A stretch of DNA of 64,000 bases. Origin: Raillietiella orientalis (Eukaryota). The translations under genes and the position numbers were made by a program. A model generated the notes under the pieces. It made no database searches and was not told the DNA's origin. It saw nothing but the letters and a program-made list of their open reading frames with translations. Positions 17,000-53,450 of the stretch are shown here, piece by piece; position 1 is the stretch's first letter; the number at the start of each line of letters is the position of its first letter. The stretch lies in NCBI GenBank assembly GCA_036172245.1, contig JAYWIR010000004.1, forward strand, positions 806,001-870,000, written 5' to 3'.

Positions 17000-18320
17000 T
17001 CAAAGACTTTTCGCCTGTCTCTTCATGCACTCCAGCTTGTCGTCTATGGAAGCGGAAGAAACGGAGGCAAGTTGCATGTGCAGAAGATGCGGGAAGACTC
17101 ACTGCCGCGAGTTCTTGATCATCATGAGAGAAATTCGAGTTCCGCCGTCAAGAGGCACGAACATCCGGTCAGTCGAGTAAAAGCGGCATAGATACGGAGA
17201 GTGCTCATAACCTCCTCCCGGTCAGCACTGCGGCTTGACTCCAGACTCCGGATGGACATGATACTTTCTGAAAAAGTCGACTCATCTTGTCCAACGCTTC
17301 CTTCTCAAGCGAGTTAATTGGGAGTCGGTGCTGGAGGAAGTGTGGCAGAGTAAGGAGAGTCAATGTCAGCAACTATCTCCCAATTGCCCCTAGAGGAGCA
17401 CCGGTAGCGGTGCGAGAATTGGTGGAAGGATCTCTGGGAGTGCGAACAGCGACGAGATGTCCGGAAAAGTCAAGGACCCTCTCACACAAGCAAAACACAT
17501 GGAGTAGTGGGTGAGCTCGGGCATACGGCACAGTCAGAACATATACTCGAAGCATGTGCTGTGTCCTCAGCGAGCATGAGCGGTCGCAATGGTGATCATG
17601 AACGTATGCGAAAGAATTCATTTCTAGGACTGCGCATGATGCAACTCCGGGAGGCAAGGCGTACCTTCAAGGGGATGTACTCTGATCAGGAGAGCCATGT
17701 CCTGTACTTGTCGTGATGGCACCCCTCTGTATAATGAATATCATATGTAGCTCGCCGATGACCTCTTCGTGCATGAGGTTCGATTCATTGCTAGCTGCAC
17801 CGATCGAGGGTGGTGCCGACCACACGCGCAGCTCACATGCAGCTCCCTTCAGCCGCGTTCAACCACTGCATGTTTAGCAGCGCTGCGGTCTTATTTACAG
17901 ACGCCGTGTTGTAGTTGTGGAACAGCTCGGAAAAAGGATAGCCGAGCTGTCGGAGATGCTGTCATCCAGCAGGCTGACTTCTGAAACGGAATCCTGCCTG
18001 GAACCTGACCTGATCCTGCAGAGCAAAGAACAGATGGTCATAATGGACACCTCTTGTCCCTTCGAAAGAAGCGACCCAACCTGTGAGGAAGGAGGGCAAG
18101 TGCTGTAGTATGACTCAGCACTCTTCCAGAGAATTGACCGCACCAGATTTGCGTCCATCGCGGTGAAGTCCTTGGGCGACGGAACCCAGGAAACGACAAC
18201 GCTCTCAGGAGGCTCAAAATCCCAGGGAATCGAAAGGAATACTTGAAGCAGGCGGTGTTGAGAAGTAAGATCCTGCGTTCCCTACCACTGGGAACCGCGG
18301 ATGGCTTCTGTTAATAGATC
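17000..18320 (+). mobile_element. RLE-type (NeSL/Utopia/R2-group) non-LTR retrotransposon, 3' remnant
   Basis: LEPDLILQSKEQMVIMDTSCPFE (PD-(D/E)xK-type L.PDLv....iDvt.PFE) at ~18000-18065, then KSLG and NPGNDNALRRLKIP (GsLGsW.p.Nd..L..Lgi); EVRFI upstream. Confidence 0.8.
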
Positions 18321-18435
18321 CTCATGTGAGAAGCCAAACTGACAACGGAAGAAGATGGAAAGGTGTGGAGTATGCAGAAAATTCTGCCTCAGCCGATATT
18401 TGACTCAGACCAAGCATTCTTTTGCCTGCCTTTTC

Positions 18436-18477
18436 TGTATATCATTGTTTTCAAAAATTTCAAAACAATGATATACA
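18436..18477. repeat. Perfect 16-bp inverted repeat with 10-nt loop
   Basis: TGTATATCATTGTTTT (18436-18451) / AAAACAATGATATACA (18462-18477). Confidence 0.95.
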
Positions 18478-18505
18478 TTTGCATATACCTGAGGGGGATG
18501 TACCC
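18452..18505 (+). pseudogene. lon: 54-nt fragment of a Lon protease gene, probably bacterial (Wolbachia-like)
   Basis: Translates QKFQNNDIHLHIPEGDVP, the Lon signature DIH(L/I)HvPEGa.P that precedes KDGPSAG; AT-rich codons unlike the flanks. Confidence 0.7.
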
Positions 18506-18569
18506 ATCACAAAGATAATTGAAGCAAAGTTATCTAATTGTGACTTATTTAATGTAAAACAGTAGTGTA

Positions 18570-18635
18570 ATCAATATCAAATTTCACAATTTTCGTAGGA
18601 GAATTTTTTGCAACTTCCTCAATATCCATTCCACC
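18570..18635 (-). pseudogene. sucC: 66-nt fragment of succinyl-CoA synthetase beta subunit, probably bacterial (Wolbachia-like)
   Basis: Translates [31 protein letters not shown] is the SucC signature; the continuation matches my recollection of Wolbachia SucC. AT-rich. Confidence 0.8.
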
Positions 18636-19849
18636 TTGAAGATCGCAGTATGATATGAACAGTGATTTAGTTGAAGCGCTGGAGCTTGCCAACATGATTC
18701 CACAAGCAGTCATTACTATGGAATGCGCATAAAACCCCAAAGAATCTCTTTATTTTCAGCATTACAGCCTACTGCTAGGTTTAAAAGCAATGAGAAATTT
18801 ATGCCATCGCCATCTCCGCTGTCTTTCTTGTGGACGGTGGAAACGAAGAATCCCCCGAGAACTGATTCTCTGTACGAAAAAGAGGATTCATTTTTCAATA
18901 GACGGAGAGCTCGAAATGATTCGGTTTCTGAAAGACAGTAGCACTTGCGACCATTTTGAGCAAGACCCAGAAAAGGTGCCTTCTCTGCGGACTGCAAGGA
19001 GGTTTCGTGGACAGCCTGCCTAAGGAAAGAGATGATTCCATCCATCGAGCTTCGAAGACGGATTTGGAGGTTGCCACTGCAGATTCTGAAAGAAAAACGA
19101 TGATGCAAGCAAATGCCGACGCGAGTGATCAAGAGAGGCGTCTGAAACGGATTGTAAATAAGTTTCTGCGTCTCTAGTGGCAGTTCCATCTGAGAGTGAG
19201 GAATGACTCTGGCTCGGCCCGAAATGCTGGGAAACAAGAAACGGTCTCTGCTTGCCTTCGGGACACATTTGTTCCGAATTTCAGTCAACGAGAGACAGAC
19301 GGAGGGATGCTCCAAGAAAAGCGATACAGAGAAAAAAAACGAACCTGACTTTTTGCATCCCCTGTAATCGTTTTTTTTTTTTCTTAGGAGCGCAAACGAA
19401 CCGTGTAACTAATTATCATAGGTATAAGTATCGACAAGTTGTTTCCTTCGGTTGCAGAATAAGAACACGTTTATTCGATGCTGCTTTTCCTTTTAGTGCT
19501 TTGGTACCCCTCTCATGGATGCCTACAGCAATTCTGTGGGGGGCGTTCTAGAGCACTGACGCTAGCTAAACGACGTAGCTCGCTCAACCTACACTCCTCG
19601 GAAAGGCTTCCAGGTTGCTATCGAGCAAATTGCCAAAAAGGAGCCTTTGAGTGGTGGAAGGTCACCTGAAGTTCCACTGATTTGACACGGCTGTCAATTT
19701 TGCTTCGGGGGCTTTTCCTTGGCATCAAACTGACTCGTATTTATGTGAGGCACGAGAGTCACGGATGCGATGGGAGCTTTTGTGCAAAAAACAGGGACGC
19801 TGTGGATGAGAAAGAAAAACAATCTCTTCTACTTTCAATCACAGAAACT

Positions 19850-22989: not shown

Positions 22990-24350
22990 ATGACTGGGAT
23001 CATGGGAAATCGTGAAAGAGTCTTCGTTTATGCAATGGATGTTTATGAGAATGGGTGGATTATAAGGAGATGGTACGCTCGTTTTGCACCTTGAGTGCTT
23101 GTTGGTTGTCCGTGCAGTACTTCGGCGGTGTCTGTATGGATGGTGATTTGTCGTCGAGATTGTGTTGGCTGTTCAATGATTCAATGAAGCAATGCTCCAT
23201 GTTTTTGGCATTTTGTTTTTCAATGAGGATGAAGATGGTGGTGATAAGAGCAACGATGCTGGGTGCATTTGGAGATGAGGTGGATTGGGAATTGTTTCTT
23301 ATTCTTTGGTTGTTTTTCTTATATGAATCATGGTTGTACTGTGGTGGTGGTAATTTATACAACCACAATTACAACGATTGGTATAAATTACCATCACAAT
23401 TACAACTTTGTGATTGGTTGAAAATGTGGTGATATAAATTACCACTACAATTTGACGATTAGAGTGATGCTTGAATAATCGCATCGGTGATAGGAATTCA
23501 CTGGAGCAGGCACATGAAAGAAAGACCATTTTGGTGATCTTTCTTCCATCACACCAAAGTTGGGTGATACCCGCTGAATTGAGGGATGGCCAGTGAGATT
23601 GCAATGCATTTGAGAGTGACGAGGACGGTGGTGTCTGTGGTAATTCATTGGTCTATTCTCAGGATGTCAAGGGCTAGACACAGGATGAGCATGGTGAGAT
23701 TGGTGTGGTGCAAGGGTCCATCACTGTGGAAGGTAGGTGGGTATGCAGCAGTATGAAGTATCTTATAGTTTTTGCATGTCGTAGCTATAAGATCGGCTGT
23801 GCTGAAGTAGTGTGTCGTGGTTTTTGGCGATTCGTGACGTACTTCTTGCCTTGTTTCGCATGCTGATGAGGATCGGTAAAAAAAAAGCAGTTCTGAAAGT
23901 TGAGAATAAGCTGAAGAAGTCGCTGACAAAGCAACGATTAATTGTAGGAGTTGGTTGATCAGAATGATATTTATTCCAGATCATGCATGTTCGTTGGTTA
24001 TGGAACATTGCTGATCAATGCCTATGTCGGGATGGTTTACGATTCGGAATCTCTACGATACGTGAAAGAACGCTTTCTGTTTCTGGTTTTCTGGTGTGTG
24101 TGAGGGTGTTTTTCTGTAATGAGGATGAAGGTGGCAATGATGAAGACGGGAATATTATGTGTTATTTGGAGATGAGGTATCGTGGAAGATATTTCCTGTC
24201 TAGTCATTTTTTCGTTAGAATCGCGGTAATGATAACAGTGTGTAGATTGTATTTTTGAGCGAACATATTATTTATAGTAACGTGCTCATTTGAAAAAAGA
24301 AACGGTATTGAAATTATGTCTTTGGAAAAAGCTGGGAGCACGAATGGGCT
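22990..24350. other. Compositionally distinct, G+T-skewed island with two diverged direct repeats
   Basis: Abrupt shift to C-poor, G/T-rich top strand. 23170-23335 aligns by eye with 24050-24228 (shared AATGAGGATGAAG and ATTTGGAGATGAGGT). Confidence 0.7.
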
Positions 24351-26379: not shown

Positions 26380-26800
26380 GTATTTTTCTCACTGCTGTCT
26401 TTAGATGAAGCTGCAGATGCAAGATGAACATTCAAATTACCTGGAAAATCTAGAAGGGTTCTTCTCAGAGTGCAAGATTGGAGCCATTTAGGAAGACAGG
26501 ATTCGGAGGTCAAATAGAGCTCAACAACCAGATCTTGTCGGAACCTCAGAAGGAATAGCTTCGGAAGCAGATGTGCCCCTCTCTTCGTTGCAATGGATGT
26601 GTGACTGAATAGATCTGGCAAGATGGAACGTTCCGGAGAAAAGGGAGTCTAAAAGTTGCTCCTACTTCCTACTCCTGATTCGTCTACCGTGTTTGTTGAA
26701 CGCGGAGTTACACTCAACTTCTGCAGTCATGGCCTCCGTCCTCGACAACAACAACCGTTGGACAGTTTCATAAAGAATAGAAGGGACTTTCCCAGTCTGA
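26380..26800 (+). pseudogene. Decayed leucine-rich-repeat protein fragment with LRRCT-like cap
   Basis: YLENLEGFFSECKIGAI (L.nL..L.ls.n.I..I) and LQWMCD*IDLARW (W.CDC.l..W), with in-frame stops. Confidence 0.5.
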
Positions 26801-27249: not shown

Positions 27250-27576
27250 TGCACATGTTGAAGCCGCTGCGGAAGATGTGGTGGGGCTTTAACAATTTTT
27301 TTAGGTCACACACCACGATTCTGTGCAAAATTATGAATGAATTGCATCTGATTATTCGCAAGAATTGAACAGTAGGTCTACGTGTATTGGAGACTAATTT
27401 TGGCTTCCATCTTGCCAGATCTATGCAGTCACAGATCCATTCCAACGGAGAAGAGAGGGACACATCTGGTCCCGGAGCTCTTCTCTTCTAAGGTTCCGAT
27501 GTGATCTGGTGGTTGAGCTCTATTTGACCTCCTAATCCTGTCTTCCTGAATGGCTCCAATCTTGCACTCTGAGAAG
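27250..27576 (-). pseudogene. Second, inverted copy of the LRR/LRRCT fragment
   Basis: PLEWICDCIDLARW...IRCNS in ORF 26831-27463(-); 27405-27576 is the reverse complement of 26461-26628 with scattered mismatches. Confidence 0.55.
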
Positions 27577-46479: not shown

Positions 46480-49470
46480 ACTTTTTTTTTTTTTGTCTTT
46501 TCGGAATGCACAGGACACATCGAAAGAAGGGGCAAACATTGCGCAAGGGTCTCAGGATTCTGGACGTTGCATCCGATTGAAAAGACGGATTCGAGTTTCC
46601 ATGGCAGATCGGGATGAATGCAGGAAAAAGTTGTTTCCTCTCTTCAGGGCACTGGCGTTCCCTCATGCCGGCTCCCAGTCATTCCATCGCAGCAGCAGAC
46701 GCTTTTCATCCTTCAGGGAGGCGCACTGGTGCTTTCCATCCTTCTTGAGCATCGCGTTCATCTACTTGCATGGGCAGCATCCCAATCGAGGACGGAAACC
46801 GAGATGGAGTCGTTGCTAGCTGGAAACTTCACTCAGAACCTCGGAGACTCTGAATCCGTGGATTTGGTACTTACAAAGGAATGATGCACAAGCACTTGTT
46901 GTGGCAATGATAATCTCTCAGTGCAAAATTTGCAATTCCGATGCTAGACGTACATCCAGCTCCTGGAGAATGGATGGAAAATTCACAGGAAGCCGATCAA
47001 CTGTGAGAAGGTCCTTTTGCGATTCCGCATCCATAGAAATGGACTGCGAGGTCGATAAGCCAGTTCGAATGAGAGGTCGATCCGGGTACCGGGACAGTGG
47101 TTCCTGTCAGTGAGCGATGAGTGGATCGGCCGAGATGAAACGAGATGTTCGCTTAGCGATTTGGGCTAATTCGGGCTCAAGAAGAATTTGTGCATTAAAA
47201 GAATACGCAAATTCTTCTTAAATTGTCCTGAAACCAACTCTGGAACTCCCGTCTCCCCTTCTTCCTGCACCATTTCTTAAATTCGTTTTCTCTTAGAATC
47301 CCTGAAGGAGAAAAGGCCCTGCATGTGTCGATGCTAAATGAGGTGTTGGCAAAAGAAGCGAAACAGAAGTGGCCGTCATCATGCAGTGAGAGAATCAACG
47401 TATTAGCTTTTTTCAATCCAGAGAAGAGGGATTTCATGGGCTAGCACAAAAAAAGAGAGTAAAGATCAGCGGTTATTGAGAAACTAGAATCGAAGGAGAA
47501 ACGGCAGTTCCACTCAGTCTAAATCTGTAGAGAGGATTTAATTTTTCTGCACTAACTGGATGATCCTATAAGTTCACAAAATGCAGAAACCTTAAGGCCT
47601 CTGTACGCTGTGGAAAATAAGGAGCAATTATCCCTCTCGGAGCATTTAATGTGAATCAAGATCAATGTGAATCATCCCATTGTAATTAAACTCTCACAAA
47701 GGTGTTTCCGAACATTGGAGAAATAGAGGTGTGTTATAAAAACATGAACATGTCCTAATATTTGAGTGTATACTTGATATATATTTATGAAAGAATGAGG
47801 TCATCACATTGCAGATGATTAAAAACCGTGGATAATTATGCACATTATAATGTGTGTTGCGAAAACGAATCAACCCATGTTACGGATATAACACGATAAT
47901 TGTTCCGAAAATATAAAACAGCCCTCGGTGTAGCATCTGAATCTCATAAGCGATTGAAGCTTCCTTGATCGTGGATGCTGCAAGGGCATGCCATTGTGGC
48001 ATCCAGCATCAGTACCATATAAAAACAACTGCATCATGAAAATGCATCTGCGGGAATTCCAGACAACAGACAGATTGATTGAAGTTATTTTTCTGCATGG
48101 AATTTTGCCACTGTAGCGTATCTTCCAAGTAATAGAGCATGACCGATCATCTCCATTCAACTCCGCAAAATCAAGTATCTTCATTCTGAAAGGTTAGGAG
48201 AGCTTAGGCGAGCACATTAATGCATTCAATGTATCATTTCGAAGGTCTTAAACACTCCACGTATGCCGCCAAAGTGCACGCAATAAGTGACAGTGCAGAT
48301 GTTCAAAGCGTCCACTGATTATTATTCACTGCTTCATTGAATTTCCGGAGCCTCCACGGAGATGGTTGCGGTTTGAGTTCGTCTCTTCCAGTAACTTTGT
48401 AGCTAGGCAAATTGAAGGAAGTGAAAGCAGAGAAAGATGCAGACTTTCGCCACAGTGTTTCGTTCCTTGGAATGAACTTTGAGAAGATCGAGCAAAGATT
48501 TAGAAATGGAGCACTTGAAAAGCATCAGTAGTCGACTCATATGTACGCAAAACCTCTCCACACTCATAGGACAAGAACCCTTGCATTTGCAATTTGAGAA
48601 TTCCTCAGGAAGACACTGCAAATTCCTCTATTTCTAGCTGCGAGGAATCGCGAAGGATGGACTAATGAATTTGCTCATGAAATTACCAATTGCCAATTGG
48701 GACAGCTGGCACCTGCCTACATCAAAGAGTCAAAACAGGGATTTCAGGCGAGTGACGGAATTAATTTCATTTAATTTTTTTTTTTAAAGACAGCACTGCC
48801 TTTATTAGCAGCGTCAGCTGTTAGACAGGAAGAGTTGTGATGTACTGTGATCTCTTTGACGGCATAACGAATGCCAATGAAAGAATTATTTTGCCTCTAT
48901 ATTTCGTCACCGCACGTCATCGTTCGTCTTCTTGGAGTCGGCTGTGCCTTTCATAAAGAGTACACTTGATTTTATTTCTGGGATGAGGAACAACTTATTC
49001 ATGGCGTTTGTATCTTGTGATGTTCTTTCTCTTGAGCAAGTTAAAAGCTCAAGTCATGATTGTGAGTTTTTAACGAAGACCGGTCAAAGTTCATATAAAG
49101 AAAGTAAGGAGTACAAACAGAAGTTTGCTACCATGGAAATGTTCTATTTAGTCCTCCTATTCAGGGAATATTGGTTGAATTCGTCTCCAGAGGGTGCAGG
49201 ATCAGAATTTCGTTCTGTTTTTAAAGGCTGGTGGTCCAACAAGAACGTCTGTGCGATACATGTGATGGACATACATAGCTCTTGTATTCTCATATCTCGT
49301 TGAATAGACCTCTCCAGTGCAAAGAAAGCAAACAGGAATGTGAATTTATATCTTCAGCTTGATTAGTTGTAGGCTTTCGTGGAGACGCTGTACCACAGAG
49401 GCACGGAGCAAGGCCCATGGCACGCTTGAGACGAACTCTCTCAGGAACGGATGCAAATAAATAAGCTCAT
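46480..49470 (-). pseudogene. CHSY: Chondroitin sulfate synthase (CHSY family) unprocessed pseudogene
   Basis: FLCTGEVYSTRYENTRA (49277-49327) is in register with FLFVGVMTAQKYLQTRA. It is followed in order by PHPRNK (YPPQKK), KTNDDV (RADDDV), VFLRN, VHMSRLL, APFLNLC, ISPMFG (VNPMYG), SRYPD...QELDV (KYP...FCDVD) and PICHGNSNP (PVFCDPNLDP). Many stops and frameshifts. Confidence 0.75.
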
Positions 49471-50999: not shown

Positions 51000-53450
51000 T
51001 TAAGGAATGCGGTTTCCTTGCGGACCTTCGATCCCGAGCCACTAGAATTGCAGAATGCATGCGAATTCATCCCGCAACAGTAGACGGTGATGATTCAACG
51101 AGCTCAGCTTGGGGTCTGCCGTGATTTAGTATCTATAGCACCATGCCCAAAGGCCGTGCCAAAGGGAACCTCCACCACTTCAGGACTCCACGATCTCTCA
51201 GCAGCACTTGCTGCTACCATCAGGATATGTGGAGAGCTCACTTCCCAACTCCCCTGAGCTCACCGTCGCGACCTTCTTTCCTTCTACATGCCATGGCCTG
51301 AGGAAACTGTCGTTCCCAGACGATGGAACGCCCGAGGGCAGGAAGGACTCCGTTCCGAAGTTTGGGTCGAGGTTCGACTCTTAAGCGCCACCCCATCTCC
51401 AGGGCTGATTGCCTGGCAAGGCGGATAGTTAGAAGCTTCCTAGCGGACTCCCGCTTCCACGATTGCCATCGTCCAGCACTCTCTGGTGAGCGAAATTTTT
51501 CATGAAATTCGATAAGCATCGCATCAAGCGTGATGCCCCCATTGCTTCGTTCAGCCCACAGCGCCAGTTCTGCTCAGCGGAATTGACCTACTGAGCTTGC
51601 GAATTCCGAGTTCGAAAACTTCACGCTTCGAGCGCTCTGGGCTTCTCACCCATTTGCAATTTGAGAGTAGGCCAAGGCATTTCCGGTAAAGAAGGATGAT
51701 AAGAGAGAGCCCTTATCATCCTCTTTACAGGAAAAGACCGTCTCGTCCTTCCTCTTGGACGAGCGCAGCTATCTTGAGGGGAACTTCGGAGGGAACCATC
51801 TGCGAGGTGGTTCGATTCGTCTTTCGCCCATGCAACCAGCTCTTCTCCTCTTCTTAGGAAGCAGTCGATTCTTGCATTGATAGCGACCCCCTCCTGGTGA
51901 GAAAGTCGTGTCAATGACTCTTAGCCGGGTCCAGACTGTTCAGAGCTGTGCAAACCGCTAATGATCGGACCTTCGAGCTTCCATGGGCGTGGACGTACCA
52001 GCCTGCCAGCACCATCGCGACCAGAGAGAAGGTGCTGTCGGGCTGAGCTCAGGTAGTGGCGTAGAGTCAGTAAGACATTGGCAAAACGTCATTTGCAAGT
52101 ATCAGCTGCTAAAGGCGAAAAGAGGGTAGTCAGGAAGCAGTTCGCACGACTGATGTCAGCATATCGTGACGGTCCGCGCATTCCCATCTCTCCTTCATCT
52201 GCATCTTCTGCCGCGGGAAACCGCAAAGGGGAGATTTACTCGCAGGATCCACTAAAGGACGAAAGTTTTGCTTGCCCGGTGTCTTCGCGGGGATCTTCTG
52301 GAAGGGCGACCGTCAAAAAAAAGTAGGGGAGAAGGAGTGACCGAGGGCTCCGAAAAGCTTTTAAAGAATTTTCGGGTTGTGGCCACTCCTTCAATCTTCC
52401 GCTCTCTCACTCGAGCAAGAGCTAACAACCCAGAGCGGGACGATCTGCTCGTCCAAGAATCAGCTAGCAAACACATGGGAGGTCTCTCCTGGATGAACTG
52501 AGGCGAGACGCTGACACGCATCTGGAATCACGACGTGCGGCACTTTCTTCTCTGGATAAAGGGCCTCTCAACGAACCCATCAAGAAGGCGACGTACGGGC
52601 GAGGGGAGCGGCAGCCAAACGACACCCACGAGGGGTCGCCCCTGTCACCTGACCTCTTCCTGAGGAACACAAACCGCTACTGTGCGGGGACTACCCATCC
52701 GCAAGCACGCCAGTGCAGCGTTCCAGGAGGGGGAAAACAGGAACAACGTTGAGAGCACCCTCCACCCTCCGGTGAAAGCCAAGTGGGATTTCGCTTGGCA
52801 GTGGCCAATTCATGGGGATCTGGTCATCCCAAGAACACAGGTGCCCTTCCAGAACTCCGACTTCCAAGAACGCGTGCGAAGCAGCTCGGCAAGTTGCCCA
52901 ACGTCCAGCTCAGCGGGAACGCACATCCATCCGCAGACACCTATCGCACGCAGTGGCTTGGAACGGCGTAATGGAAACAGTTGAAGAAGATCGCCAACTT
53001 TGAGACTCAGACGACGCCGATACGCACACGGGAAAACCTGTTCGAACTGGAGATGCCAAACCAGAAGCTGCGGGTTCGCAAACCGCAAACGTGAAGCCGC
53101 CTGCAAAGTCTCCCCCCTCCGTCCCCCTCCACCCCACGAAGAACAGCATCGCCTTCGTGCTTCTTGCGAAGCGATCGACTCCTGATGCCTTTGGTGCGCT
53201 GGAGGGATCGCGCGCAAGCGCACGCAGTTGTTCGCTCAATGGTAGTTAGGATGACCTTACCCAGGCAAAAGTTTGCCTTTGGTCCGGGAATCCATCCTCT
53301 GGCAGCATCTCCCGAGATCCTCAGCGGCATAGCGCCTGCCACTCCTTGACTGGCTGCGGATCCCGATCTCCATGCAGAGCGGTCACAGTCACAGGCAACT
53401 GCGCGCTGGAAAGCTGTGGGTCCTCTGCATCCTTCGTCTGCAAGAGCTCA
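51000..53450 (-). mobile_element. RLE-type (R2-group) non-LTR retrotransposon, decayed, inserted within RICTOR
   Basis: Ordered PLGFH...GALN (Q.GF...G..N), RGDPS (QGDPlS), LLADS (fADD), ALEMGWRLRVEPRPKLRNGVLP (Gw.v..EP......G...PD) and EVVEVPFG. Confidence 0.7.

Follow-up and report, generated by a model that had tools for sequence, protein, structure and literature searches.

A 370-bp patch of five abutting Wolbachia gene fragments with the anatomy of a compound nuclear insertion

Introduction

The closest described counterparts of the locus presented here are the nuclear Wolbachia transfers (nuwts) of filarial nematodes and arthropods, which it resembles in being Wolbachia DNA in host nuclear sequence, in a non-coding context and with disabled genes, as these elements are portrayed in the literature (PMC3849323; PMC2882956; PMC4046930; PMC12693587). 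Nuwts can be short, with a mean of 159 +/- 83 bp reported for O. flexuosa (PMC2882956), and they can lie side by side, as do two adjacent nuwts of B. malayi that come from different parts of the wBm genome (PMC3849323). Surveys of these elements apply filters, with only matches >100 bases considered in one (PMC4046930) and E<1e-30 required in another (PMC12693587). These accounts call the transfer mechanism unknown or leave the junctions unanalysed; we found no base-pair junction analysis of nuwts in their main texts, and their supplements may hold such data.

A second set of counterparts is formed by the complex organelle inserts (numts, nupts and numins), in which pieces from separate places of the donor genome are joined at one nuclear site, as they are here (PMC6215612; PMC9630118). 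Complex numts and nupts carry signatures of non-homologous end joining (NHEJ), and their fragments must have met before or during integration (PMC6215612). As these organelle inserts are described, our patch differs from them in that its donor is a bacterial endosymbiont and in that an insert of this size contains unusually many, and unusually small, fragments. Loose fragments are also ligated as filler of double-strand breaks when yeast chromosome breaks are patched with extrachromosomal DNA and when transgenes form scrambled concatemers, and fold-back or templated end additions are typical of alternative end joining. Those cases are experimental or somatic, whereas the patch would be a fixed, decayed and natural event of the germline.

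Here, we describe a patch that consists of five exactly abutting Wolbachia shards, all <100 bp, in which the junctions and a fold-back can be read at single-base-pair resolution; this sets it apart from the nuwts as they are reported in the accounts cited above. A compound nuwt is a known sort of insertion, with precedents among nuwts and complex numts, and it is the base-pair anatomy that is unusually clean in this case.

Results

The window, by which we mean the whole 64-kb stretch of contig that was analysed, carries one compound Wolbachia-derived insert (Table 1). Five shards of 52-94 bp each, taken in order from lon, tolB, sucC, sdhA and the class-I lysine-tRNA ligase gene (lysS), tile this insert without gaps, and beyond its ends the donor and window sequences diverge completely. 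GC in 100-bp windows is 0.28-0.41 across 18400-18800, against 0.44-0.60 in the flanks and ~0.49 for the window, which bears out the AT-rich patch of ~370 bp claimed in the initial annotation; the five peptides quoted there are likewise all found in the sequence, each at its position and on its strand. At the level of the assembly, non-bacterial DNA poor in ORFs (longest ORF 281 aa) adjoins the patch on both sides, over 18.4 kb and 45.2 kb, and these flanks are single-copy within the window and have no Wolbachia match. When the ~63.6 kb outside the patch was compared with four Wolbachia genomes, none of them matched at E<=1e-3, and a 28-mer spanning the junction between shards F3 and F4 had no exact match in metagenome contigs.

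Table 1. Coordinates of the insert, its shards, its junctions and other features of the window. Percentages are DNA identities; G numbers denote Wolbachia genomes.
Feature	Coordinates	Strand	Description
Compound insert	18436-18805		370 bp; host DNA up to 18435 and from 18806
Host/insert junction	18435/18436		0 bp shared
Fold-back, left arm	18436-18455		Partner arm 18458-18477; repeats the beginning of the lon shard in inverted orientation
Fold-back, outer 16 nt	18436-18451		Perfect reverse complement of 18462-18477
Fold-back, pivot	18451-18462		12-nt quasi-palindrome native to Wolbachia lon
F1	18453-18504	+	52 bp of lon, Lon_C protease domain; 94% to G004 (wMoz), G015, G033 and G042; donor ORF endopeptidase La (TIGR00763, E=2.7e-254)
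F1/F2 junction	18504/18505		Blunt, 0 bp shared
F2	18505-18560	+	56 bp of tolB, TolB N-terminal domain region; 95% to G001 (wTis); donor ORF TolB (TIGR02800, E=3.2e-65, under the family's curated cut-off)
F2/F3 junction	~18560		1 bp shared, at most 5 imperfect
F3	18556-18637	-	~77-82 bp of sucC, ATP-grasp domain; start ambiguous from 18556 to 18561; 93% to G001 and G002, 97% over 70 bp to G006; donor ORF succinate-CoA ligase beta (NF001913, E=3.2e-175)
F3/F4 junction	18636-18637		TT, 2 bp shared
F4	18636-18729	+	94 bp of sdhA, C-terminal flavoprotein domain; 97% to G002 (wPaur) and G039; donor ORF succinate dehydrogenase flavoprotein (TIGR01816, E=1.2e-288)
F4/F5 junction	18729		A, 0-1 bp shared
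F5	18729-18805	-	77 bp of lysS; 97% to G015, 95% to G004; donor ORF class-I lysine-tRNA ligase (NF001968, E=1.8e-249)
Insert/host junction	18805/18806		0 bp shared
GC-skew spike	23001-24000		Skew 0.353 at 41.7% GC
Inverted repeat pair	26461-26628 / 27405-27576		172 bp, 89% identity, ~780 bp apart
U4 snRNA-like match	46760-46876	+	Full model length; 34.4 bits, below gathering 46; E=4.4e-4
LSU rRNA-like fragment	51314-51790	-	Eukaryotic; model positions 960-1386 of 3401; 51.1 bits against gathering 50

The origin of the patch was sought with peptide patterns taken from a 66-aa minus-strand ORF, which were run against 185,579 prokaryote species, one genome per species. The scan gave 491 pattern matches, from which 12 loci passed tblastn: 10 belong to Wolbachia or to a 'Rickettsiales bacterium' metagenome-assembled genome that a genus search placed in Wolbachia (81-100% identity), and the other two to distant alphaproteobacteria (68-75%). 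When a 651-bp DNA query (18300-18950) was compared with five Wolbachia genomes, all five returned matches in five abutting segments with E from 1e-13 to 1e-38, along with a sixth, inverted match that takes 18436-18462 to the same Wolbachia site as F1. Each shard is 93-97% identical to its nearest Wolbachia genomes, and no shard exceeds 97% identity in any of 60 species genomes. The Wolbachia origin put forward in the initial annotation therefore holds, on the origin scan and the five abutting DNA matches. Exons of host LONP1 or SUCLA2, which had been named there as the competing source, are rejected, as the best matches are to Wolbachia DNA at 93-97%.

The DNA matches also settle which genes are represented. 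The SucC piece of the initial annotation is confirmed both by Wolbachia DNA and by its minus-strand frame, which matches SucC among PDB sequences (E=5.2e-4). For the Lon piece, a PDB sequence search with the 53-aa plus-strand frame gave no Lon match at E<=10, so its identity is established by the DNA match to Wolbachia lon and not by the motif that had been cited for it. The further coding-like pieces that had been left unassigned are real and now prove to be tolB, sdhA and lysS. A minus-strand reading of 18640-18749, part of the 66-aa ORF, was rejected in favour of the plus-strand sdhA reading: that ORF is a composite, with its residues 8-31 matching only the antisense strand of sdhA. The TolB donor ORF scores under the cut-off of its family because it is truncated in the genome concerned (wTis).

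Separately, we observed that the tolB frame around the shard is short in two of the nearest Wolbachia genomes, with a 314-aa ORF in wTis that lies below the TolB cut-off and only 83 aa in wMoz, and that some genomes, G005 and G015 among them, have nothing that matches the tolB shard at E<=1e-6. Parts of this Wolbachia clade may be losing tolB by erosion.

The patch was then compared with 60 species-level Wolbachia genomes. Shards F4 and F5 were found in every one, F1 and/or F2 in 55 and F3 in 54. In each genome, the five source loci are separate or on different contigs, and in none of the 60 are they adjacent; the closest pair seen, lon and sucC, is ~9-10 kb apart in a few genomes. In the single-contig genome G033, the sources of F1-F5 lie at 337, 134, 623, 217 and 837 kb. 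At each junction, the donor flanks never run on into the neighbouring shard. Summed over the five shards, mismatches among 361 sites number 21 to wTis (G001), 22 to wPaur (G002), 23 to wMoz (G004), 24 to G033 and 35 to wStri (G003). Two of these nearest named strains, wPaur and wMoz, are assigned to supergroup F (PMC12693587), and among the Wolbachia genomes that carry names the donor appears closest to supergroup-F strains.

At the junctions, pieces that lie apart in the donor genomes abut without spacer bases, which marks the patch as a multi-fragment insert, and the joins are of the NHEJ type: the shards share 0, 1 (up to 5 imperfect), 2 and 0-1 bp with one another and 0 bp with the host at either end, and a target-site duplication is lacking. 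Around the patch we found no flanking direct repeat or target-site duplication, and at the patch no poly(A). One end of the insert is a fold-back, with arms of 20 nt that the repeat search found to be 95% complementary and 2 nt apart. Its predicted DNA hairpin has an energy of -12.6 kcal/mol (z -5.6), which none of 200 shuffles equalled.

To describe the state of the shards, we defined as private any site at which the window differs from every aligned Wolbachia, with 7-9 genomes aligned per shard. The patch has 11 private substitutions (10 if the ambiguous position 18559 is assigned to the tolB shard), distributed over F1-F5 as 3, 2, 4, 0 and 2, which by a rough chi-square is no more uneven than chance. 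By codon position (1:2:3) they fall as 1:5:5, compared with 12:7:39 for the 58 positions at which living Wolbachia differ from one another. The enrichment at position 2 is significant at Fisher p=0.018, or 0.049 when the ambiguous site is left out, with n=11 only, and the contrast of position 3 with positions 1 and 2 is not significant (p=0.19), a weak test at the same n. Seven of the 11 alter an amino acid, among them an A to D change in the conserved PEGA stretch of Lon. In addition, the sdhA shard lacks one base after 18656, a private deletion that causes a frameshift, whereas the extra G is kept in all nine aligned Wolbachia. Through this disabling frameshift and its private substitutions, the patch differs from a live copy of the symbiont.

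None of the shards holds an intact ORF over a whole domain, and the composite frames of the patch match no Pfam family. The shards, of 17-31 codons (52-94 bp) each, all come from the interior of donor ORFs of 314-649 aa, in keeping with the 50-100 bp size and the abrupt mid-gene ends attributed to the shards at the outset. That their frames are still open is mainly because each is so few codons long. The initial annotation had also judged the event recent. This is not borne out, given 93-97% identity, 10-11 private substitutions and a private frameshift: private substitutions with no third-position bias, taken with the frameshift, argue that the insert is not very recent. The patch would fit about 3%, or a few percent, of neutral decay since insertion, and some of the private changes may stem from an unsampled donor lineage.

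The rest of the window is like gene-poor eukaryotic DNA, with a longest stop-to-stop frame of 281 aa. Its CpG observed/expected ratio is 0.81 and its TpA ratio 0.52. It contains 189 ORFs of >=95 aa, and among the 170 of these that were searched none had a Pfam match and none a reverse-transcriptase or transposon domain. No tRNA gene was found in the window, and its most coding-like ORF had no usable match in the protein atlas. The sole repeat within the window is an inverted pair, which may represent the two termini of a small non-autonomous transposon. The notion that the locus is rich in transposable elements is accordingly unsupported, with no Pfam match in 170 ORFs and, counting repeats within the window only, a single 172-bp repeat pair.

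Three further features of the window were noted in passing. An isolated eukaryotic fragment resembling LSU rRNA is probably a decayed piece derived from rDNA. A match to U4 snRNA may be a pseudogene or a divergent copy of U4. One 1-kb bin has a GC-skew spike far above all other such bins of the window.

Discussion

How might pieces of five unlinked genes of a symbiont have come to lie end to end in host DNA? We propose that the patch is probably a compound nuwt that arose in one event, when end joining at a single break in the germline captured several pieces of degraded symbiont DNA. Degraded Wolbachia chromosomal DNA would have supplied five short fragments of unlinked housekeeping genes, in mixed orientation, which would then have been ligated end to end, and into a single double-strand break of the host germline, by non-homologous end joining. 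A single-stranded lon tail may have snapped back on its natural palindrome, been extended by ~16 nt and then been joined, leaving the fold-back, and the insert would afterwards have drifted neutrally. We infer the break-repair step from the insertion product. Alternative end joining is known to leave this sort of mark, a snap-back extended before ligation.

A single-event account, the simplest for these data, explains the abutment of the shards, their mixed orientation, the 0-2 bp overlaps, the lack of a duplication or poly(A), the snap-back, the similar decay of the shards and the isolation of the patch in 64 kb. That several shards were captured together at one site, as the initial annotation had supposed, is supported by the abutting matches and the anatomy of their junctions, and we reject sequential independent insertions of the five shards. 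The insert is almost certainly without function, drifting as a pseudogene.

A different reading is that the patch lies in no chromosome: small Wolbachia fragments would have been fused into a chimeric molecule while the library was prepared or amplified, and this molecule would have been assembled into the contig of the host. Concatenated sub-100-bp pieces with a fold-back do resemble ligation or displacement-amplification chimeras, yet overlaps of 0-2 bp at the junctions would be too short for a k-mer misjoin, and the patch sits inside a 64-kb stretch of contig, where the host sequence on either side of it is unique. Moreover, copies from a live symbiont are expected to be intact, whereas these shards carry the private sdhA frameshift, seen in none of nine Wolbachia. 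Their private substitutions show no bias towards the third codon position and include amino-acid replacements, for instance A to D in the PEGA stretch of Lon. We therefore consider an artefact improbable. It is also quite unlikely that the shards are what is left of a large Wolbachia insertion, of tens of kb up to a whole genome, that four large internal deletions, along with inversions, cut down to five stubs. There are documented cases of large nuwts that later broke up (PMC4299567), NUWTs have been described as 'fragmented by neutral genomic processes' (PMC12693587), and Wolbachia gene order is fluid enough that the shards could have been colinear in the true donor. Such erosion would nevertheless require four independent deletions, each leaving a stub <100 bp and a clean join of 0-2 bp, and no other Wolbachia remnant within 64 kb. 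The order and orientation of the shards are also unlike those of any genome inspected (in G033, for example, the sources run 337, 134, 623, 217 and 837 kb), and the private-substitution counts of 3, 2, 4, 0 and 2 per shard do not go beyond the spread expected by chance in a rough chi-square.

An RNA-mediated route would account for all five shards coming from transcribed protein-coding genes: a reverse transcriptase of the host would have switched from one Wolbachia transcript to another, and the resulting chimeric cDNA would have entered the chromosome. Since a Wolbachia genome is mostly coding DNA, the finding that all five shards are coding says little about an RNA origin. Retroelements and poly(A) tracts near Wolbachia-like fragments have been suggested as relevant in filarial nematodes (PMC2882956), but at this locus the sense strands are mixed (+,+,-,+,-), poly(A) tail and target-site duplication are lacking, and no reverse-transcriptase domain occurs in the 170 ORFs of the window. 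Given strands of both senses, and with neither poly(A) nor a duplication present, we reject template switching by reverse transcriptase, and the RNA route as a whole is very improbable. Equally remote, and speculative, is the idea that the patch was captured for a function, lying in a locus that produces small RNAs and serving as a record against the symbiont or a means of regulating it. Typical piRNA clusters differ from this window in their transposon remnants and repeats; here there are no transposon-protein remnants and almost no internal repeats, and the substitutions look neutral.

Taking the patch as a compound nuwt captured at one break, what does it contribute? It offers a base-pair view of endosymbiont DNA entering a host chromosome, as very small fragments sealed in a break with a snap-back at one end. 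Survey filters of >100 bases (PMC4046930) or E<1e-30 (PMC12693587) would miss pieces of this size, which suggests that nuwt surveys with length cut-offs of at least 100 bp, or with E<1e-30, undercount such insertions.

More tentatively, the patch could be the tip of a hidden class, with symbiont DNA reaching the germline nucleus mainly as sub-100-bp shards that are concatemerised and used as break filler. If this is true, the length or E-value thresholds applied in published nuwt surveys would exclude such 'micro-nuwts', which would also constitute a sensitive fossil record of past infections, in this case by a supergroup-F-like Wolbachia and possibly in a host lineage with no known Wolbachia. 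The patch itself indicates that the host lineage once carried a Wolbachia related to supergroup F.
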